17,225 nucleotides of DNA from a virus (IMGVR_UViG_2537561992_000019), one strand, 5' to 3'. Positions 1 through 15,407 are shown, counted from the first letter of the stretch. Made by a program: numbers and translations. The notes: generated by a model not told the origin, from the sequence alone.

Positions 1-63
1 CTGGCCGACACAGCCGTACTGCCCTTTGCTCAGGTCTGCCTTCGGATGATTCAGCGTACTCAT
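1..63 (-). CDS. hypothetical protein, N-terminal fragment only (ATG at 63..61; gene runs off the window start)
   Basis: ATG preceded by AGGAT; the 21 codons (MSTLNHPKADLSKGQYGCVGQ) are open to the window edge. Too short to identify. Confidence 0.3.
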   Translation of the reverse strand, partial: MSTLNHPKADLSKGQYGCVGQ

Positions 64-134
64 ATCCTGCACATCATGCAGGCAGTGGTCGGCCGGAATA
101 ATATCGTTATATCTGCAGGCAGCCCCACCCGGCG

Positions 135-446
135 TCACTGTACTGCGGCGCGCCAGCTGTTTAATGCGCGGATCCGGAGCATCGTATGAATCCGGCAGCG
201 GAAGCCCTTCACCGTAAGCCATGGCATGGACTGCCCGGCCAGTACGATGACGTAGTACCACTCCGGCTCAGTTGCACCACTGACCACCACATCACCTTCT
301 GCTGTAATCGCCTGCATCAGGGTATAAGGGGTTATGGCCACCGGACTCCCAAACGGCTGCCAGCCCTCTTTCAGTTTGTGTGTCAGCTTTTCCGCAAGGT
401 CTGACGGCGACGCCGCCCTGACAACATCATAATGTTTAAATGTCAT
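135..446 (-). CDS. small late-region phage protein, 103 aa (possibly YdfR-like)
   Basis: ATG at 446..444 preceded by GGGAGGAA. Family assignment is by position (late operon) and size only. Confidence 0.6.
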   Translation of the reverse strand: MTFKHYDVVRAASPSDLAEKLTHKLKEGWQPFGSPVAITPYTLMQAITAEGDVVVSGATEPEWYYVIVLAGQSMPWLTVKGFRCRIHTMLRIRALNSWRAAVQ

Positions 447-534: not shown

Positions 535-630
535 AAGAAATGAAAAAAGGCCACGCAGTTGCGCAGCCTGATAAACCCTGGTTAAAATCCACACGATAAC
601 AACACAACAATATCAGTATCTCATGCTATT

Positions 631-655
631 GCCCGAACCCATTCGGGCATTTTTT
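631..655 (+). terminator. rho-independent terminator-like hairpin (GCCCGAA-CCCA-TTCGGGC followed by T6)
   Basis: GC-rich stem with T-run on the plus strand; forms a back-to-back pair with the minus-strand hairpin at 661..684. Confidence 0.45.
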
Positions 656-660
656 ACCCA

Positions 661-684
661 TAAAAAGCCCCTCCGGAGAGGGGC
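661..684 (-). terminator. rho-independent terminator-like hairpin (GCCCCTC-TCCG-GAGGGGC followed by U5 on the minus strand)
   Basis: A-run 662..666 on plus gives the U-tract on minus; sits downstream of the TerB-like/membrane gene pair. Confidence 0.5.
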
Positions 685-808
685 ATGTTTGCATGCACAT
701 TCTTTTTCTTGTATGGTGCCGGGTGCCTCCCGGTGAATTCAGTATCAGCACCTAAATCCGCGATTATCCCATATACCTGGTTGCTGATCGCCCTCCGCAC
801 AGGGGGAT

Positions 809-1018
809 TCACCATGCAGAAGTGTTTTTAATAAACAGCAAACAAAAAAACCAAGCATTATGCAGGCTGTTTCTTTTTATCACCGGCCACAGCAATACCA
901 CAATGCCGCAGACCAGCACCCCATCCGCCAGCACCGACATGATTCTGCTGGTGAAATCCACCATCACCACCAGAAACAGCAGGAGTGCAGCCACAGCCAG
1001 GCGCAGTTTTACCGTCAC
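809..1018 (-). CDS. small predicted membrane protein, 69 aa, two hydrophobic helices
   Basis: GTG at 1018..1016 overlaps the TerB-like stop (GTGA). Hydrophobic stretches LRLAVAALLLFLVVMV and GVLVCGIVVLLWPVI. Alternative ATG start at 964. Could be a non-coding tail. Confidence 0.35.
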   Translation of the reverse strand: MTVKLRLAVAALLLFLVVMVDFTSRIMSVLADGVLVCGIVVLLWPVIKRNSLHNAWFFCLLFIKNTSAW

Positions 1019-1446
1019 AGGTGATTCTCCAGACGAAGACCCAGAACACCGGCAATCTCTTCCAGCACCTTGCGCTCTTCCGGCTCAATTTCGCCGTCTG
1101 CCTCCGCAATGGCCACCGCCACATCCAGCACATCTTCCGCTTCACGCGCATCGTGTTTCACATCCTCAATCTCGCGTAACGCGGCACGACGACCAATTTT
1201 AAAATTGGTATCCAGCTGACCGATAATAGTTGCGCTAATCGCATTAATTTCCGAGGTAAACGCAGACAACGCAGGCTGATTACGTAAGACCTGTTCGATC
1301 TTCGCTTTCTCGGATGCCTCGCATTCACCATCTGCATAGGCCACCAGGTATGCAGCGTTAATCACCGCCTGTGCCAGATCGCGTTTCTCAAACTTTTTAA
1401 TTTCCGCTGCCGCTCTGCGGGTTTTCTTTTTGAAGATTCCAAACAT
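1015..1446 (-). CDS. TerB-like (tellurite-resistance TerB family) protein, 143 aa
   Basis: True start is ATG at 1446..1444 (MFGIFKKK) with AAGGAA Shine-Dalgarno; the track ORF begins further upstream. Two ADG-x3-E style motifs (AYADGECEASEKAK, AEADGEIEPEERK) typical of TerB domains. Confidence 0.65.
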   Translation of the reverse strand: MFGIFKKKTRRAAAEIKKFEKRDLAQAVINAAYLVAYADGECEASEKAKIEQVLRNQPALSAFTSEINAISATIIGQLDTNFKIGRRAALREIEDVKHDAREAEDVLDVAVAIAEADGEIEPEERKVLEEIAGVLGLRLENHL

Positions 1447-1575
1447 CGTGACGTTCCTTTGGGTGGGTGAGCCAACGCCCGGGAGCGATCTGCCCACAGA
1501 GAAAGTCACACTGACCACTCCGTAAGCTCACCCCCGAAAGGCTCTGTGGTTGATATGCGCCGGGCGTGGCGCAGA

Positions 1576-1602
1576 TACAAAAAAGGCCCGCCGAAGCGAG
1601 CC
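1576..1602 (-). terminator. rho-independent terminator after the tRNA pair
   Basis: Minus-strand RNA GGCUCGC-UUCG-GCGGGCC (7-bp stem with one G-U pair, UUCG tetraloop) followed by U6. Confidence 0.6.
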
Positions 1603-1615
1603 TGGAAAATAAGTG

Positions 1616-1692
1616 TGGCGCGTTGTAGTGGAGTCGAACCACTGACCGATTGCTTAGAAGGCAATTGCTCTGTCCGGCTGAGCTAACAACGC
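1616..1692 (-). tRNA. tRNA-Arg (anticodon UCU), 77 nt, phage-encoded
   Basis: Hand-folded cloverleaf: 7-bp acceptor stem GCGTTGT/ACAACGC, anticodon loop CTTCTAA, T-arm GTGG-TTCGACT-CCAC, encoded CCA end. Confidence 0.9.
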
Positions 1693-1792
1693 AGAATACC
1701 GATAATGGACCGCCATCGGGGACCCGCCCCCGCACCAACAACCCTGTTATGGTGTCGTCTGCTCTTCCTGATAAGCTAATGGCGGTTTGTGA

Positions 1793-1868
1793 TGGTGGCC
1801 CTTGCTGGATTTGAACCAGCGACCTGGCGATTATGAGTCGCTCGCTCTCACCACTGAGCTAAAGGGCC
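1793..1868 (-). tRNA. tRNA with CAU anticodon, 76 nt (Ile2/lysidine type by recalled similarity to E. coli ileX; Met not excluded)
   Basis: Acceptor stem GGCCCTT/AAGGGCC, anticodon loop CTCATAA, T-arm GCTGG-TTCAAAT-CCAGC, encoded CCA end. Confidence 0.85.
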
Positions 1869-1917
1869 GGGAGCAGAATAATAATGGTGCGTAATTAATT
1901 CTGCAATCTCATCCGTT

Positions 1918-2967
1918 TCAAACGATTAAATCCTGAACTTCCCTGACTGTCTGTTCAAAGCGTCCGGTCTCCAGCTCAACACCAATCGCACAACGCCCCA
2001 GTGCCATCGCCGCTTTTACCGTTGAACCTGAACCCATAAAAAAATCTGCAACCAGGTCTCCCGGACGACTGCTCGCGTTGATTATCTGCTGCAGCATTTC
2101 TGCCGGTTTTTCGCACGGATGTTTCCCTGGATAGTACTGCACCGGTTTATGCGTCCAGACATCGGTGTACGGAACCTGCGCCGTCACACCGAAATACCGC
2201 CGCAAATTTTTATATTCACTCAGCAGTTCCGTATACTGCCGGTTCAGCTCACTGTATGTGCTGACCAGCTGGTGGTGTGGCTTTTCCAGTTCCCCGCGCT
2301 GATGTTTTTCTGCCGCAACACGCGCAAACAACGCCTGCAATTTGTTGTAATCACCCTCGTTCGGTAACTGCCACTGACTGATACCAAACCAGTGCGAAGC
2401 CATGTTTTTCTTTCCGGTGGCTTCCGCTATCTGTTTTGACGTTATTCCCAGTGATTTACGCGCATCACGAAAGTAAGAAATCAGCGGGGCCATGACGTGC
2501 TGTTTTAGCTCGCGCCCCTGCTCCACATAGCCATCATCTTTCGGGCGATACGGTCCCTGATAATGTTCTGCAAACAGAATGCGCTCTGTTGCCGGAAAAT
2601 ACGCCCGCAGACTTTCCTTATTGCACCCGTTCCAGCGTCCGGACGGCTTCGCCCAGATAATGTGGTTCAGCACATTAAAGCGCTCACGCATCATGATTTC
2701 GGTGTCAGATGCCAGGCGATGACCACAGAACAGGTAAAGACTTCCGGCAGGCTTCAGTACCCGCCAGAACTGCGCCAGACACTGGTCCAGCCATTTCAGG
2801 TAATCATCGTCGCCCTCCCACTGGTTATCCCAGCCCTCGGGCTTCACTTTAAAGTATGGCGGGTCTGTGACTATCAGATCGACAGAGTTTTCCGGTAAGG
2901 TCTGGATAAATTCCAGGCAATCAGCGTTGATTAACTCACAACTGGATATTTTTACAGTATTAATCAT
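1918..2967 (-). CDS. orphan DNA methyltransferase, beta-class (N6-adenine or N4-cytosine), 349 aa
   Basis: DPPY catalytic motif near the N-terminus (LIVTDPPYF) and AdoMet-binding motif FFMGSGST near the C-terminus. No restriction endonuclease gene adjacent. Confidence 0.85.
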   Translation of the reverse strand: MINTVKISSCELINADCLEFIQTLPENSVDLIVTDPPYFKVKPEGWDNQWEGDDDYLKWLDQCLAQFWRVLKPAGSLYLFCGHRLASDTEIMMRERFNVLNHIIWAKPSGRWNGCNKESLRAYFPATERILFAEHYQGPYRPKDDGYVEQGRELKQHVMAPLISYFRDARKSLGITSKQIAEATGKKNMASHWFGISQWQLPNEGDYNKLQALFARVAAEKHQRGELEKPHHQLVSTYSELNRQYTELLSEYKNLRRYFGVTAQVPYTDVWTHKPVQYYPGKHPCEKPAEMLQQIINASSRPGDLVADFFMGSGSTVKAAMALGRCAIGVELETGRFEQTVREVQDLIV

Positions 2968-3117
2968 AGATCAATAAGCACTTCTCTGATAGGCTCATGC
3001 CGCTTTTGCGCAAAGCAGATGGGCCTGAGGTTTGCTTGTGACCCCAACGCATGAGCAGATGGCTGGCAGGTGCCGCTAACACCCACCAGCCGCCCATTAC
3101 CACAAATTAAAAAGCCT

Positions 3118-3315
3118 TCACTGCGGAAGGCGTCTGTAACAACCGAACTGATAATCTGCCAGACCCGCCATAACAAGCTGAGTCAGTATTAACTGGCAGC
3201 GTTCGCGTGAAAGGTAAGTATTCTGCGCAATTTCCCCGACGGTCGCCGGTTCGGTGACGCTTAATTCATTAAACACCACTCTGGCGGTTTCGGTCATATC
3301 CTGCTGTTTTAGCAT
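3118..3315 (-). CDS. small putative helix-turn-helix DNA-binding protein, 65 aa
   Basis: ATG at 3315..3313 (MLKQQDMTE); HTH-like stretch ATVGEIAQNTYLSRERCQLILTQL. The track ORF starts upstream but runs through the terminator hairpin. Confidence 0.4.
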   Translation of the reverse strand: MLKQQDMTETARVVFNELSVTEPATVGEIAQNTYLSRERCQLILTQLVMAGLADYQFGCYRRLPQ

Positions 3316-3435: not shown

Positions 3436-3462
3436 CATAAAAAAACCCGCATAAAGCGGGTT
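3436..3462 (-). terminator. tR'-like rho-independent terminator downstream of the putative Q gene
   Basis: Minus-strand hairpin AACCCGC-UUUAU-GCGGGUU followed by U7; about 190 nt downstream of the Q stop. Confidence 0.6.
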
Positions 3463-3627
3463 CTTTCAGGTGTCCATGTCTGCTATTCGCCTCGCGGTAC
3501 AGCTTTGCGAAGCGTAGCTGGATTGAAACAGTTTATGGCTAAAAATACAAGCTTTTTTTCTAAAACTGCACAAACCTTACTACCAGCCAAAAATCCTCTT
3601 CGTGCAACAACAAACGCCCTCCAGATT

Positions 3628-4182
3628 CTAAGCGTCAGTAAAAGAAAATGCATCTCGCATCAGTGGATACAGAATAAACTCAGCTATTCTCAGCCACATA
3701 TCTATACGATTGCGGCATGTTGCATAGCACCACTCAGGGTGAACCTCATTCAACAATTCAGCCATTTTGCGTTTACTCATCCCCCGCCCTTCGTATCTTT
3801 GCCGCAGGATATCAATCAATCCAGGATAACGTGCAAGCGCTTTACTTATCACCCCATCAATGCGTAACGCCTCTGCATCAGTACAGTGAGACAACCAGCT
3901 CTTCTGTCTGCCAGCGATCATCTCTCGCAAGAATGCTTCCAGCTCTGGTTTATCAATCCCTGACTCCCTGATTCTACGCAGGGCTTCATTGATTGCGGTT
4001 TTTGTCAGTTTTTTGGATGCCAGCAACTGATTGAACATATTTCCTGTTTTGCTACCACCTATATACGACCAACGCCCCCACATCCGTAATTTCCCCTGGA
4101 TCCAGACGGCTTCCAGCGTTTTTAGACGTAAATGCTCGCCGCTTTTGCCTGTAATTTCCGGGTATATCATATTTACGATCAC
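3628..4182 (-). CDS. putative late-gene antiterminator Q, 184 aa (GTG 4182) or 180 aa (ATG 4170)
   Basis: Assigned by position only: directly after rusA and directly before a strong terminator and the late-region island. No motif confirmed. Confidence 0.45.
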   Translation of the reverse strand: MIVNMIYPEITGKSGEHLRLKTLEAVWIQGKLRMWGRWSYIGGSKTGNMFNQLLASKKLTKTAINEALRRIRESGIDKPELEAFLREMIAGRQKSWLSHCTDAEALRIDGVISKALARYPGLIDILRQRYEGRGMSKRKMAELLNEVHPEWCYATCRNRIDMWLRIAEFILYPLMRDAFSFTDA

Positions 4183-5601: not shown

Positions 5602-5880
5602 TTACCTCCAGATGCGTTGCTGGAATGTGCGGGACGGACGCGGTGGTCGTTCGGAGTAAGGAAGCCTGACGGAGATTATCCAGTGACGATAATCGAGGCT
5701 GAGGGCTTTCTTAATCTCGTATCCGTGTCTGCGGTAGCACTGAATTAGCCACTCGGCCTGTTCTTCAGTGCATGGGGGATGCTGGAACCAGTCAGATTTG
5801 AAAGTGCGGGAACGCCGCCCGTGCCTGCTGGCAGGGGCGGCAGAGTTATCCGAATTGTAAAATTTGGTATCGTGCGCCAT
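5602..5880 (-). CDS. rem: Rem-like small protein, 92 aa
   Basis: ATG at 5880..5878 (MAHDTKFYNSDNS); sits between the DUF968 gene and hok as rem does in Qin (recalled). Confidence 0.5.
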   Translation of the reverse strand: MAHDTKFYNSDNSAAPASRHGRRSRTFKSDWFQHPPCTEEQAEWLIQCYRRHGYEIKKALSLDYRHWIISVRLPYSERPPRPSRTFQQRIWR

Positions 5881-5950
5881 CTGTTTTCTCTGCTGGCGCA
5901 GCAGGTGCCAGTTGTTCAGGCTGACGGATGGATTGTAAACCAGAACGACC

Positions 5951-5979
5951 AGAAAAAACAAAACCCGCCGAAGCGGGTT
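5951..5979 (-). terminator. rho-independent terminator at the 3' end of the hok transcript
   Basis: Minus-strand hairpin AACCCGC-UUCG-GCGGGUU followed by UUUGUUUUUUCU. Confidence 0.55.
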
Positions 5980-6047
5980 AAGTGCGGGTGCGTTGAGGAT
6001 GCCTGACACATCAGCGGTGGCGAGGGATTTCTCCCCCGCCTGGTCTC

Positions 6048-6203
6048 TTACTCCTCAGGTTCGTAAGCTGTGAAGACAGCGACCTCCGTCTGGCCGGTTC
6101 GGATTCGTACCTCGCAGAGGTCTTTCCTCGTTACCAGTGCCGTCACTATGACGGTTAAACAGATGACGATCAGGGCGATTAACATCGCCTTTTGCTGCTT
6201 CAT
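6048..6203 (-). CDS. hokD: Hok-family type I toxin, 51 aa
   Basis: MKQQKAMLIALIVICLTVIVTALVTRKDLCEVRIRTGQTEVAVFTAYEPEE matches HokD/RelF as I recall it; ATG at 6203..6201 with AGGAGA Shine-Dalgarno. Confidence 0.9.
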   Translation of the reverse strand: MKQQKAMLIALIVICLTVIVTALVTRKDLCEVRIRTGQTEVAVFTAYEPEE

Positions 6204-6375
6204 AACCTGCTTCTCCTTGCCTTTCGGCGCGTAAGAGGCTAACCTACGTTTGTGAAGCATAGATTGGGCCTCAGATTAATGTTAAGCGTCTTGCAGGACG
6301 CGTAATGTTAACTGGGGCTTTTCTCTGTCTGCCTTACGGTGGCATGCCCGAGGCAGACAGCCTCAAGCACCCGCA
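6204..6375 (-). promoter_or_regulatory. hok mRNA 5' leader, including a mok-like in-frame start at 6260
   Basis: 5' end sequence UGCGGGUGCUUGAGGCUGUCUGCCUC resembles the 5' end of plasmid R1 hok mRNA (recalled) and is complementary to the 3' end at 5983..5998. Confidence 0.5.
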
Positions 6376-11307: not shown

Positions 11308-11350
11308 TGAGGTGTACTGGCAATAGCGGACACTACCATTTGTTCTTTTT

Positions 11351-12255
11351 TTAAGCAGCCATCTGATGATATTTTTCCCTGAAGGCTGCCGGGGAGATAT
11401 TCCCCAGACGAGAGTGACGACGCTGACGATTGTAGAAAATCTCAATGTATTCCCGTATTACTGAGATGGCTTCATCCCGGTTATTAAAACGATAGTGGCT
11501 CAGGCTCTCATTTTTCAGCGTTCCCCAGAAGCTTTCCATCGGAGCGTTGTCGTAACAGTTACCTTTACGCGACATTGATGTTTTCAGACCAAACTGCTCC
11601 TGTATGACCCGGTAATCGTATGCGCAGTACTGTGAACCTCGATCAGAGTGGTGGATTAGCCCGGCAGGTGGGCGCTGGCTCCTGAGCGCCATAAACAGAG
11701 CTTTACCTGTCAGCTCTTTTGTCATGCGCTCTCCCATGGCGTAGCCGACAATTTCGCACGTATAAACATCTTTGATGCCAGCGAGGTACAACCATCCCTC
11801 CTGTGTGGCAACATACGTCAGGTCCGCCACCCAGACCTGATTTGGTGCTGTAGGAGCGAACGTCTGGTTCAGCAGATTTGGCGCAACTGGCAGATTGTGG
11901 TTCGAGTTCGTAGTCGCTCTGAACTTGCGTTTCTGCTTACAGCGTAGCCTTAGCTCCTTACGAAGACGTGCCAGTCGGTCACGACCAACGATGATGCCAT
12001 TCTCTGCCAGCTCCGTCTGGAGCCGCCGGGTTCCATATGTTTCGCGAGTGCGGATATGTGCCACCTTAATCTCCAGTTTTAGCCGCTCATCACTTTGTTT
12101 CTGTCTGAGGGTTCATGCTGTACCCAGTTGTAATAACCGCTCCTGGATACACCAAATACCTGACACATCGCTTCAATGGGAAATTGTTGTCGCCATTGTT
12201 CGATTAACGCGTATTTTTCAGCGACTCCTGTGCAAAATACGCTGTTGCTTTTTTT
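11351..12255 (-). pseudogene. IS3-family transposase orfB, frameshifted by a 1-bp deletion
   Basis: TTT at 12098..12100 where copy 2 has AAAA at 14086..14089, truncating the OrfAB frame. Confidence 0.7.
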
Positions 12256-12506
12256 AATATATCTCGCTCAAGGCGAGCTTCATTTAACGCCTTACGCAGT
12301 TGCAGAATTTCAGATTCCAGTTCAGCCACCGTGCGGGAACCAGGAGTACCGAGCCCTTTTCTGGCGGCGGTAACCCATTGTCCTAAAGTGCCTTCAGGAA
12401 GAGATAATCGGGAAGCGCCTTCACTGATCGAAAGTTGATTTTCAAGAACCGTTCTGACAGCTTCGGCTTTGAACTCTTTAGAGTAACGTTGGGTTTTTCT
12501 GCTCAT
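12204..12506 (-). CDS. IS3-family transposase OrfA, 100 aa
   Basis: Protein identical to OrfA of copy 2; HTH-containing N-terminal transposase part. Confidence 0.85.
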   Translation of the reverse strand: MSRKTQRYSKEFKAEAVRTVLENQLSISEGASRLSLPEGTLGQWVTAARKGLGTPGSRTVAELESEILQLRKALNEARLERDILKKATAYFAQESLKNTR

Positions 12507-12698
12507 TATTAGCTCCTTCTGATGCCATTCTATTTCAGGAAGGAGTGTCCGTTAAACTCAGGCTACCTCACTGTTATACAAAGTGTTCCCGCCGTCATGT
12601 TCATACGCCTCGGGCTGGCTACTTAACCCCTGACCACTGCCGGGTAACTCGAGGTATTGCCCGACGTTCTGTGGGGCGAGGTAGGGTGGTATGTAATA

Positions 12699-12727
12699 AA
12701 TCTAAAAGTATTTAGTTTTTCAGTCAA
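12699..12727 (-). promoter_or_regulatory. candidate PL-like promoter (-35 TTGACT, 17-nt spacer, -10 TAGATT) with overlapping operator 12700..12717
   Basis: Hexamers read on the minus strand; operator ATCTAA-N6-TTAGTT overlaps the -10; palindrome AATCTAGATT at 12732..12741. Confidence 0.4.
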
Positions 12728-12746
12728 GATAAATCTAGATTAATTT

Positions 12747-12772
12747 AAAAAAAAGGTCGGCATTGCCGACCT
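12747..12772 (-). terminator. rho-independent terminator directly after the cI stop
   Basis: Hairpin GGTCGGC-ATT-GCCGACC followed by U8 on the minus strand. Confidence 0.6.
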
Positions 12773-12792
12773 CAAGTAAAGGACGTGGCGGG

Positions 12793-13440
12793 TTATAAGT
12801 TGAACTGTACACCTTTTGCTACGGCAACAATTTTACACTCTGGTGTAAGTAAGGATGACTGATAGCGTGGATTGAGAGGGCTTAAATACACAAGCTTCCC
12901 ATCAATAACTAATTTCTTTATAGTCATAGATGGTTCATTTTTAAGCGGATCCGGAACTATTACAGCGACGATGCTGCCATTTTTATAACTTTCTCCTGGC
13001 CTTAGGATCACAGTAGCACCAACTGGGATACTCGGTGATCCTGATGGGTTATGCATTGTGTCATCAGGCATTGAAACGGCAAAATCACCTTCCTCGACAT
13101 CAAAGAATGTGGTGATCCTATCGACATTTCCCATTGTTTTCTCTCCTTTTAAGATTAGGAAAGAAATCGCCTCACCCCACGAAAGGTAGGGGATCTTGGT
13201 GCCTGAGGTACTTTGTACAAAAGATAATTCAGGAGACGATACTCCATATAGGAGATAGGACTCAGTAGTTCCTAATGCCTGGGCTAACTTACTTAGAGCT
13301 TTGCTACCTGGTTCGTTTAGATCTTTCTCCCAGTACCCTATAGTAACCCCAGTCACGCCTGAAAGCTTACCCAGTTCTACTTGGGTCAGCCCCTTATCTT
13401 TTCTAAGTCTCTTAAGCCTGATGCCAAGGCTTTCCATCAT
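12793..13440 (-). CDS. cI: CI-like prophage repressor, 215 aa (N-terminal HTH, C-terminal LexA-like S24 peptidase)
   Basis: ATG at 13440..13438 preceded by AGGAGAAA. HTH LTQVELGKLSGVTGVTIGYWE; S24 region with Ser in AVSM and Lys in TIKKL, resembling lambda CI (recalled). Confidence 0.85.
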   Translation of the reverse strand: MMESLGIRLKRLRKDKGLTQVELGKLSGVTGVTIGYWEKDLNEPGSKALSKLAQALGTTESYLLYGVSSPELSFVQSTSGTKIPYLSWGEAISFLILKGEKTMGNVDRITTFFDVEEGDFAVSMPDDTMHNPSGSPSIPVGATVILRPGESYKNGSIVAVIVPDPLKNEPSMTIKKLVIDGKLVYLSPLNPRYQSSLLTPECKIVAVAKGVQFNL

Positions 13441-13479
13441 TTTCTCCTGCAAATTGAATATAAATTATTTTAGATTGCA

Positions 13480-13522
13480 TTGACCTAAAAAAAATTATCT
13501 TGTAATCTAAAAATACTTAGAT
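13480..13522 (+). promoter_or_regulatory. candidate PR-like promoter (-35 TTGACC, 17-nt spacer, -10 TAATCT) with perfect operator ATCTAA-N6-TTAGAT at 13505..13522
   Basis: Read directly; drives the cro fragment, which has AGGAGG Shine-Dalgarno and ATG at 13535. Confidence 0.45.
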
Positions 13523-13534
13523 TTAGGAGGTAAA

Positions 13535-13615
13535 ATGCGAGTTGATGAACTTGTCCAGTTTTTTGGTTCTGTTCAGAGGGTTGCCGATTTTTATGGGATA
13601 ACCCGCGAAGCTATT
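13535..13615 (+). pseudogene. cro: cro-like gene, 5' fragment (27 codons), truncated by the IS insertion
   Basis: MRVDELVQFFGSVQRVADFYGITREAI; the next codon is TGA supplied by the first bases of the IS. Confidence 0.7.
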
Positions 13616-13679
13616 TGAGGTAGCCTGAGTTTAACGGACACTCCTTCCTGAAATAGAATGGCATCAGAAGGAGCTAATA

Positions 13680-13982
13680 ATGAGCAGAAAAACCCAACGT
13701 TACTCTAAAGAGTTCAAAGCCGAAGCTGTCAGAACGGTTCTTGAAAATCAACTTTCGATCAGTGAAGGCGCTTCCCGATTATCTCTTCCTGAAGGCACTT
13801 TAGGACAATGGGTTACCGCCGCCAGAAAAGGGCTCGGTACTCCTGGTTCCCGCACGGTGGCTGAACTGGAATCTGAAATTCTGCAACTGCGTAAGGCGTT
13901 AAATGAAGCTCGCCTTGAGCGAGATATATTAAAAAAAGCAACAGCGTATTTTGCACAGGAGTCGCTGAAAAATACGCGTTAA
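13680..13982 (+). CDS. IS3-family transposase OrfA, 100 aa
   Basis: ATG at 13680 after GAAGGAG; contains the A7G run at 13931..13938 near its 3' end. Confidence 0.85.
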   Translation: MSRKTQRYSKEFKAEAVRTVLENQLSISEGASRLSLPEGTLGQWVTAARKGLGTPGSRTVAELESEILQLRKALNEARLERDILKKATAYFAQESLKNTR

Positions 13983-14836
13983 TCGAACAATGGCGACAAC
14001 AATTTCCCATTGAAGCGATGTGTCAGGTATTTGGTGTATCCAGGAGCGGTTATTACAACTGGGTACAGCATGAACCCTCAGACAGAAAACAAAGTGATGA
14101 GCGGCTAAAACTGGAGATTAAGGTGGCACATATCCGCACTCGCGAAACATATGGAACCCGGCGGCTCCAGACGGAGCTGGCAGAGAATGGCATCATCGTT
14201 GGTCGTGACCGACTGGCACGTCTTCGTAAGGAGCTAAGGCTACGCTGTAAGCAGAAACGCAAGTTCAGAGCGACTACGAACTCGAACCACAATCTGCCAG
14301 TTGCGCCAAATCTGCTGAACCAGACGTTCGCTCCTACAGCACCAAATCAGGTCTGGGTGGCGGACCTGACGTATGTTGCCACACAGGAGGGATGGTTGTA
14401 CCTCGCTGGCATCAAAGATGTTTATACGTGCGAAATTGTCGGCTACGCCATGGGAGAGCGCATGACAAAAGAGCTGACAGGTAAAGCTCTGTTTATGGCG
14501 CTCAGGAGCCAGCGCCCACCTGCCGGGCTAATCCACCACTCTGATCGAGGTTCACAGTACTGCGCATACGATTACCGGGTCATACAGGAGCAGTTTGGTC
14601 TGAAAACATCAATGTCGCGTAAAGGTAACTGTTACGACAACGCTCCGATGGAAAGCTTCTGGGGAACGCTGAAAAATGAGAGCCTGAGCCACTATCGTTT
14701 TAATAACCGGGATGAAGCCATCTCAGTAATACGGGAATACATTGAGATTTTCTACAATCGTCAGCGTCGTCACTCTCGTCTGGGGAATATCTCCCCGGCA
14801 GCCTTCAGGGAAAAATATCATCAGATGGCTGCTTAA
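13931..14836 (+). CDS. IS3-family transposase orfB segment, expressed as an OrfAB fusion by programmed -1 frameshift
   Basis: The -1 frame is open from the A7G run to the stop at 14836; first in-frame ATG is at 14018. C-terminal half has the IS3-family catalytic region (HSDRGSQY, MSRKGNCYDNAPMESFW). Confidence 0.8.
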   Translation, partial: KKSNSVFCTGVAEKYALIEQWRQQFPIEAMCQVFGVSRSGYYNWVQHEPSDRKQSDERLKLEIKVAHIRTRETYGTRRLQTELAENGIIVGRDRLARLRKELRLRCKQKRKFRATTNSNHNLPVAPNLLNQTFAPTAPNQVWVADLTYVATQEGWLYLAGIKDVYTCEIVGYAMGERMTKELTGKALFMALRSQRPPAGLIHHSDRGSQYCAYDYRVIQEQFGLKTSMSRKGNCYDNAPMESFWGTLKNESLSHYRFNNRDEAISVIREYIEIFYNRQRRHSRLGNISPAAFREKYHQMAA

Positions 14837-14934
14837 AAAAAGAACAAATGGTAGTGTCCGCTATTGCCAGTACACCTCACAGCGCAGCAGGTTTTTAGTT
14901 CCGCGACCCGGCGTTAAGGGTAAATGAGGTCAAC

Positions 14935-15349: not shown

Positions 15350-15407
15350 TTTCTGGTGACGTTTGGCGGTATCAGTTTTACTCCGTGACTGCTCTGCCGC
15401 CCTTTTT
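15350..15407 (+). ncRNA. dicF: DicF small RNA (53 nt, 15350..15402) plus its terminator U-tract
   Basis: TTTCTGGTGACGTTTGGCGGTATCAGTTTTACTCCGTGACTGCTCTGCCGCCC followed by TTTTT matches E. coli DicF as I recall it; lies just upstream of dicB. Confidence 0.8.

Follow-up and report, generated by a model that had tools for sequence, protein, structure and literature searches.

A tRNA module of probable rare-codon function in a toxin-less lambdoid prophage of Escherichia coli

Background

The tRNA cluster ileZ-argN-argO of the Stx2 phage 933W was reportedly described by Plunkett et al. in 1999. That paper is cited in PMC6266700. A full-text literature search on ileZ/argN/argO gave no matches, and prior knowledge of these tRNAs is taken here from database annotations. 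The 933W record (NC_000924) annotates pR', qut, two terminators, pT, ileZ, argN, argO and a pre-stx terminator. The closest match to the locus described below is the Stx2e phage phiP27 (NC_003356; 91% identity over 1.9 kb), and a non-Stx prophage, PPyecE_EH1910 (LC567835), shares with it a methylase, TciA/TerB, a small ORF, nanS-p and a holin (94% over 1.6 kb). In lambdoid prophages of EHEC, Tree et al. (2014, PMC4104026) described a "moron insertion site" at PR', accompanied by convergent sRNAs. Finally, a preprint on Pas-sRNAs (bioRxiv 10.64898/2026.05.13.724894) relates STnc100 structurally to PasD, whose place is just upstream of nanS-p, and finds stx next to less than 3% of the chromosomal neighbourhoods of this kind.

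Here we analyse 17,225 nucleotides of viral DNA (IMGVR_UViG_2537561992_000019; this whole stretch is called the window), in which an earlier note had seen a Q/tR'/tRNA architecture like that of Stx phages, with no toxin gene. We consider it likely that positions 1578-1906 (minus strand) form a tRNA module in the late, Q-controlled region of a lambdoid E. coli prophage of the Qin/DicB type, and that this module supplies rare-codon decoding to the phage genome.

Results and discussion

Two tRNA genes in the middle of a prophage

In the whole window, ARAGORN calls two tRNA genes and no more, both on the minus strand, and Rfam, whose tRNA model has a gathering score of 29 bits, agrees:

1616-1692, minus strand: tRNA-Arg(tct), ARAGORN; Rfam tRNA 67.3 bits, E=5e-13
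1793-1868, minus strand: tRNA(cat), ARAGORN; Rfam tRNA 72.5 bits, E=2e-14

Each has a canonical cloverleaf and an encoded 3' CCA. The claim that a CAU tRNA and an Arg-UCU tRNA lie at 1616-1868 is thus borne out, these coordinates being the outer limits of the pair, and the tRNA-caller check that had been proposed, run with ARAGORN, accepts both genes with the anticodons cat and tct, as claimed. In RefSeq, the pair is labelled tRNA-Ile and tRNA-Arg in a prophage 99.9% identical to the window, which is found in about 100 complete genomes, mostly of O26-type strains.

The locus is transcribed from right to left (the strand was absent from the earlier note). Along the minus strand, hokD/sok, DUF968, RusA and a Q-like gene precede a hairpin with a T-run, a 65-aa ORF and an N6/N4 DNA methylase gene; then come tRNA(CAU), a 100-nt spacer, tRNA-Arg(UCU), a terminator, the TerB and DUF3927 genes and STnc100, followed by AgvB on the plus strand and by the start of nanS-p (446 downwards, minus strand). 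At the head of this series, a Hok/Gef toxin gene of the hokD type and its antisense RNA sok (6048-6372, minus strand; Rfam 114.9 bits) lie in a nin-like region, upstream of DUF968 and RusA. The tRNA block is therefore found between Q/tR' on one side and nanS-p and the lysis genes on the other, as in the late-region tRNA module of lambdoid and Stx phages.

Many prophages integrate into tRNA genes, and one might wonder whether the two genes mark an integration site, or are host DNA captured at the prophage boundary, and are not phage genes at all. The Pas-sRNA preprint (bioRxiv 10.64898/2026.05.13.724894) does read tRNA hits near PasA/PasC as insertion hot spots. Yet the pair has a central place in the prophage, with int/xis about 16 kb away on one side and holin, lysozyme, terminase and capsid genes on the other; the genomes that 933W and phiP27 package contain the same tRNA genes; and the module has its own annotated terminator and (putative) promoter. 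We think that an origin at the prophage boundary is extremely improbable on these grounds, and that tRNA hits in such prophage regions should not be taken as integration sites. In this neighbourhood (RusA, TerB, DUF1627, STnc100, sok, AgvB), the tRNA hits are the internal ileZ and argO of the phage, unlike the reading given in the preprint.

The CAU tRNA is of the ileZ type

The gene with the CAU anticodon is identical to the ileZ of phage Stx2a_1447 (76/76) and to that of 933W, and nearly so to the ileZ of phiP27 (75/76). Compared with ileX of the K-12 host (68/76), it differs at 8/76 positions but has the same anticodon, the same anticodon loop and an acceptor stem of the ileX type. It shares with ileX the pairs C4-G69 and C5-G68, which we take to be TilS determinants, where tRNA-Met has U4-A69 and A5-U68, and it is unlike metT/metU throughout the acceptor, anticodon and T stems. 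From these identities, shared pairs and differences, we assign it by sequence to the tRNA-Ile2 type (ileZ, ileX-like), as the first gene of the module. In E. coli, tRNA-Ile2 decodes AUA once it has been modified with lysidine, and the same reading, after the same modification, is expected for the phage tRNA.

The label tRNA-Met, which ARAGORN gives to this gene by its anticodon alone and which several phage records also carry, would mean that AUA is not read. We find a methionine identity very improbable, given the similarity to ileX, the differences from metT/metU and the two acceptor-stem pairs, and given that RefSeq and the records of 933W, phiP27 and Stx2a phages all use the label tRNA-Ile or ileZ. 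Callers that look only at the anticodon thus attach a wrong tRNA-Met label to ileZ.

The UCU tRNA is argO

The earlier note had likened the two tRNAs to ileZ and argN of Stx phages. The kinship with ileZ is confirmed, whereas that with argN has to be amended: argN is the UCG tRNA, and the UCU tRNA corresponds by sequence to argO, the last gene of the module. It is identical to the argO of Stx2a_1447 at 74/77 positions, two of the three differences being a compensatory C51G/G65C swap in the T stem. When the 12 distinct variants of this tRNA-Arg are compared, standard pairs occupy 100% of the pair cells and 10 pairs have changed on both sides. The gene carries A20, C35, U36 and G73, presumably the identity elements of ArgRS, and its product should read AGA and probably AGG. 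It is only about 69% identical to the host argU of K-12 (about 24/77 differences), with which it has in common the anticodon and the whole anticodon loop, CUUCUAA. Unlike the host genes ileX and argU, the tRNA genes of the window are phage-borne and multi-copy.

Control elements and upstream genes

The following elements bring the reader from the Q-like gene to the end of the module:

3628-4182, minus strand: Q-like late antiterminator gene, DUF1133 family, 180 aa from the RefSeq start (Pfam, PHROG)
3437-3467, minus strand: tR'-like intrinsic terminator, hairpin GAAAGAACCCGC-TTTAT-GCGGGTTTTTTT, -20.3 kcal/mol, z=-5.9
3118-3315, minus strand: small conserved ORF of 65 aa with a weak TrmB-like HTH (PHROG 331, E=1e-37)
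1918-2967, minus strand: N6/N4 DNA methyltransferase gene, 349 aa (Pfam N6_N4_Mtase, E=3e-44; PHROG DNA methyltransferase)
1878-1906, minus strand: putative tRNA promoter pT, -35 TTGCAG, 17-nt spacer, -10 TATTAT (homology to the 933W annotation)
1578-1603, minus strand: intrinsic terminator closing the tRNA module, 8-bp stem with 6 GC pairs followed by T6, -14.6 kcal/mol, z=-3.8

By its sequence, the Q-like protein belongs to a Q family. It scores 336 bits with Pfam DUF1133 and 265 bits with PHROG 753 ("anti-termination protein Q-like"), passes the Phage_antitermQ model (28.6 bits for a cut-off of 26), and gives a weak but collinear match with the solved Q21 (6P18/6JNX; E=0.007); NCBIfam has no named family for this protein or for the small ORFs. 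The gene comes after RusA, as in lambdoid phages. About 160 nt past its stop codon is the tR'-like hairpin, which resembles the terminator annotated after pR'/qut in 933W, and which a scan for consensus terminators misses because the stem runs into the T-run. The claim that the tRNAs follow Q and tR' holds for the order, since they lie 1.76 kb downstream of the Q-like gene, but they do not follow directly, the 65-aa ORF and the 349-aa methylase being in between. That ORF is annotated at the same position in phiP27, Stx2a_1447 and RM8426, and the two genes together occupy this place in phiP27 and in many Stx2a phages.

The consensus scan found no minus-strand promoter at its threshold for pR', pT or the TerB gene, and qut was likewise not identified. 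pT has 8/12 consensus positions, which falls under the threshold of the scanner, and it is accepted here only through its homology with the 933W feature "pT; putative tRNA promoter", with which it agrees in elements and position. Its -10 ends 9 nt ahead of the tRNA 5' end, and it is kept in 4/4 aligned phages.

At the other end, the terminator after argO was thought to replace stx, together with the TerB-like gene. In fact, 933W, phiP27 and Stx2a_1447 have it as well, just ahead of stx, and in the 933W record it is entered as a [quoted passage not shown]. It is therefore assigned, on this comparison, to the tRNA module, and not as a stand-in for stx; 49/74 related loci have it. The presence of TerB in the stx position, in contrast, stands.

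Comparison with Stx phages and other relatives

A mosaic block common to Stx phages starts within the tR'-like hairpin, at 3450, and runs to 1568, thus including tR', the small ORF, the methylase, the tRNAs and the terminator, with 91% identity to phiP27 and 88% to Stx2a phages. phiP27 shares with the window the small ORF, the methylase, ileZ, a hairpin-substituted argN relic (see below), argO and the terminator, and two tRNAs are annotated there too. It differs in having stx2eAB in the slot after the terminator, a gene for a GIY-YIG nuclease after Q, and a canonical T-loop in the relic.

The synteny comparison with phages of the 933W type that the earlier note had suggested gives a matching tRNA module, pT, terminator and gene order, with stx absent from the window. 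933W has the same ileZ and an argO with 4/77 differences, of which two make up the compensatory G51/C65 swap, one is in the T-loop and one is at position 37; its pT elements, its post-argO terminator and its gene order with respect to Q, nanS-p and the lysis genes are those of the window. On the other hand, the argN(UCG) of 933W is intact, its terminator is followed by stx2AB and its Q is of another family, and of the methylase it retains only the last 39 codons or so, a 3' stub between tR' and pT. Because this remnant was left upstream of pT, the comparison implies that the layout with methylase and tRNAs may be ancestral and 933W a deletion derivative. The remnant is located at 2962-3081 of the 933W locus (L128 in our set), directly upstream of the annotated pT, and encodes a product ending in ...VKAAMALGRRAIGVELESGRFEQTVREVQNVVSQNG and a stop codon.

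The prophage PPyecE_EH1910, in which the cargo gene is annotated as TciA/TerB-like, differs in having a pair of genes resembling a toxin-antitoxin system at the place of the tRNAs, and the tRNA position is therefore an exchangeable slot as well. The pair, annotated as "plasmid stabilization protein" and "transcriptional regulator", lies at 5655-6350 of that locus (L001), between the methylase and TciA/TerB.

The middle position holds an argN relic

We dropped the idea of a third tRNA gene in the 100-nt spacer, where neither Rfam (at E<=10) nor ARAGORN (with lowered thresholds) detects one. The spacer contains a recognisable element nevertheless, termed a relic and not a gene because of these blank searches:

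1706-1785, minus strand: relic of argN (tRNA-Arg UCG) with no anticodon loop and a damaged T-loop (alignment to argN, fold)

Its two ends align with the argN of 933W and Stx2a_1447 (the 5' acceptor and D arm; the T arm, 3' acceptor and CCA), and in place of the anticodon arm and variable loop of argN it has 27 nt of unrelated sequence. The cloverleaf fold is retained, but the place of the anticodon arm is taken by a hairpin of 9 bp with a 3-nt loop. An intact argN(UCG) as middle gene is thus absent from the window, which has the relic only. In a scan of species-representative genomes, the 27-nt replacement motif matched E. coli only. A 2026 paper noted "tRNA-pseudo-tRNA-Arg" variants adjoining stx2i.

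Our survey of argN covered 120 IMG/VR loci with ileZ and four references (the window, phiP27, Stx2a_1447 and RM8426). An intact argN(UCG) is present in 59 of the surveyed loci, and ARAGORN calls a tRNA in all of them (59/59); the hairpin variant is present in 28, none of which is called (0/28), and these make up 28/95 of the related loci having both flanking tRNAs. Changes are concentrated at this middle position of the block. Other forms seen there among the IMG/VR loci are a tRNA-Lys(UUU) in two, a second UCU anticodon in one and 80-nt deletion forms in several; some of the argO copies in these loci are truncated or lack the CCA.

The canonical T-loop, which is kept in the phiP27-like relics and lost in the subtype of the window, suggests a stepwise decay. 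Within the hairpin class, the mean pairwise difference is 0.026 for the relic and 0.029 for tRNA-Arg; the relic is therefore as diverse as its neighbour, and ongoing decay is not demonstrated by this sample. A variability no higher than that of the neighbouring tRNA-Arg, together with the preserved cloverleaf, also lies behind another idea, to which we attach a small probability, namely that the relic may be maintained as a tRNA-like RNA, processed by RNase P and provided with CCA but devoid of an anticodon, with a role of its own, for example as a decoy for factors that bind or cleave tRNAs or as the precursor of an sRNA.

A link between the state of argN and the type of cargo was considered and rejected, since stx, TerB and other cassettes are each found with either class of argN. 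The loci with an empty slot in our sample all have an intact argN or a deleted form.

A TerB cassette in the slot of stxAB

Downstream of the module terminator, the window has the following features:

837-1575, minus strand: cargo ("moron") insertion relative to empty-slot prophages, about 740 bp, TerB/TciA and DUF3927/TciB
1015-1446, minus strand: TerB-family (TciA-like) cargo gene, 143 aa (Pfam TerB, E=4e-16, 59.8 bits for a cut-off of 24.4)
809-1018, minus strand: gene for a small membrane protein, DUF3927, TciB-like (Pfam DUF3927, E=1e-16; PHROG 1470 "TciB-like")
656-846, minus strand: STnc100-family sRNA gene, right boundary of the slot (Rfam RF02076, 125.7 bits)
594-655, plus strand: AgvB (anti-GcvB) anti-sRNA gene (Rfam RF02702, 96.5 bits, consensus matched at 62/62 positions)
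1-446, minus strand: 5' part of nanS-p, SASA-family sialate O-acetylesterase (Pfam DUF1737 at the N-terminus)

The TerB-family protein falls in PHROG 632 ("tellurite resistance", moron category). AgvB and STnc100 are convergent, back to back, and the counterpart of nanS-p in RM8426 is annotated as a SASA esterase of 616 aa. A terminator-like hairpin, with 9 pairs and then a T-run, is found on the late-gene strand at 548-569 (minus), between AgvB and the nanS-p start codon.

The boundaries of the cassette can be read from two comparisons. In 13 of the 74 related loci the slot is empty, only about 490 nt separating argO from nanS-p, and homology with these loci covers 1615-1576 and then 836-1. 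With Stx2a_1447, homology ends at 1568 and resumes at 835, inside an STnc100-type sRNA downstream of stxB, where a segment homologous to the STnc100 of the window is found. By this alignment, the TerB/DUF3927 cassette fills the same slot as stxAB in Stx phages. The PR' moron site (PMC4104026) likewise consists of a cargo CDS downstream of Q/PR', a convergent sRNA pair and then a conserved phage ORF (here nanS-p); tRNA genes are not discussed in that paper, and the cargo in the window is TerB/DUF3927.

The earlier note was right that there is no toxin gene: with the A and B subunits of Stx2a and Stx2e as tblastn queries, the best similarity anywhere in the window has E=0.84. The toxin-less state is, however, the common one. 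Among the 74 related loci with enough downstream sequence, stx occupies the slot in 9, TerB with or without DUF3927 in 18, DUF3927 alone in 4, and neither is found in 43. The junction from tRNA-Arg to TerB occurs in 824/5,426 complete E. coli genomes, and the tRNA block itself in 3,061/5,426, with up to 13 copies per genome. A tRNA block without toxin is an ordinary, common and known arrangement, annotated in hundreds of genomes, and only the anatomy of the argN relic and the exact boundaries of the slot are mildly new here.

State of this prophage copy

The prophage of the window has been rearranged. Two inverted copies of IS600, at 11308-12570 and 13616-14880, enclose a segment (12571-13616, 1,047 bp) that is inverted relative to RM8426 and holds a gene for a LexA-family repressor and the 5' end of cro. 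This inversion splits cro and uncouples pR from the operon running from replication to Q, so that the Q of this copy may never be made. Among the complete E. coli genomes of the collection searched, none matches the double-IS600 arrangement at >=80% coverage, and the IS600 next to dicB in RM8426 is absent from the window. In the same early-left region, the DicF sRNA (15351-15402, plus strand; Rfam 76.7 bits) adjoins dicB, which makes this region Qin/Kim-like. In addition, nanS-p has, compared with RM8426, a deletion of 1 nt at window position 228, resulting in a frameshift after about 73 codons. Two more deletions of 1 nt, at 794 and 667, are inside the STnc100 gene; such deletions may reflect either true decay or sequencing errors in homopolymers.

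To judge from its sequence, this copy is probably defective, and expression of its tRNAs would then depend on pT or on the Q of a sibling prophage. One may go further and regard the two tRNA genes as silent passengers of a dead prophage, contributing nothing in this genome, a view that can appeal to the rearranged immunity region with its split cro, to the nanS-p frameshift and to the decay already undergone by the middle tRNA, argN. We consider this unlikely, because both flanking tRNAs are intact, with all stem pairs maintained and one compensatory change, because pT and the terminator are intact, so that transcription need not depend on the copy's own Q, and because Q from sibling prophages could act in trans. 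With several copies of the block per genome, what the tRNA copy in the window contributes is redundant.

Codon usage and the probable function of the pair

The idea that the two tRNAs correspond to codons seldom used by the host is well supported by codon counts on annotated genes. In 38 prophage genes, ATA, AGA and AGG occur 8.8, 6.0 and 4.8 times per 1000 codons, versus 3.5, 1.1 and 0.6 in a host sample limited to 40 genes of K-12 (Fisher p = 1e-6 to 1e-9). The three codons are thus 2.5-7.6 times commoner in the prophage than in the host. The excess is larger in the early genes upstream of the tRNAs (ATA 11.3, AGA 7.3 and AGG 5.9 per 1000) than in the genes downstream of Q (6.4, 4.7 and 3.6), and the Q gene itself has 10 ATA/AGA/AGG codons in 179.

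We also considered a fit between the tRNAs and the cargo. Such a fit is seen with stx, where ATA reaches 37-45 per 1000 (stx2e: ATA 44.6, AGA 24.8), and was rejected for the TerB cargo, which has no ATA and a single AGA. The codon data suggest that the tRNAs serve the regulatory and early genes of the phage at least as much as the cargo.

The model that we have in mind is as follows. The tRNAs would be transcribed at a basal level from the putative pT and, after induction, strongly, by a Q-modified RNA polymerase that starts at pR' and reads through tR'. The transcripts would then be processed by host RNases, TilS would turn C34 of the CAU tRNA into lysidine so that AUA is read as isoleucine, and the UCU tRNA would read AGA/AGG. 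The pair would in this way raise the decoding capacity for three host-rare codons, for the phage genome generally and not for one cargo. We infer the steps of expression, processing, modification and charging from the sequence.

Phage tRNAs can also counteract defences that cleave tRNAs, and colicin D cuts tRNA-Arg species in the anticodon loop. The pair could thus be imagined as a set of anti-defence spares that replace host tRNAs cut by anticodon nucleases or by tRNA-targeting colicins, and not as a codon supply, with the TciA/TciB-type neighbours, whose names refer to colicin resistance, belonging to the same theme. The tRNA-Arg of the window is indeed unlike host argU across the stems, and could for this reason escape a nuclease that recognises the host tRNA, and in PHROGs the labels of the cargo families refer to resistance to colicin or tellurite. 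Nevertheless, its anticodon loop, where colicin D cuts, is the same as that of argU; the tRNA block is seen with many cargos or with none, and hence without linkage to TerB; and the match with codon usage is significant by itself. tRNA-Ile2 is not known to have a nuclease partner. We think that the anti-defence hypothesis is improbable, and none of the alternatives discussed here (anti-defence, integration remnant, methionine identity, silent relic) is favoured over a supply of rare-codon decoding.

Conclusion

Lambdoid prophages of E. coli carry the tRNA block as a general fixture, over half of the complete genomes have it, and its versions with two tRNAs contain a recognisable relic of argN. 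The slot behind the block can be filled interchangeably by the toxin genes, by TerB/TciB or by other cassettes, or can be left empty, and what looked like the architecture of an Stx phage without its toxin is therefore neither a phage that has lost stx nor a new element.
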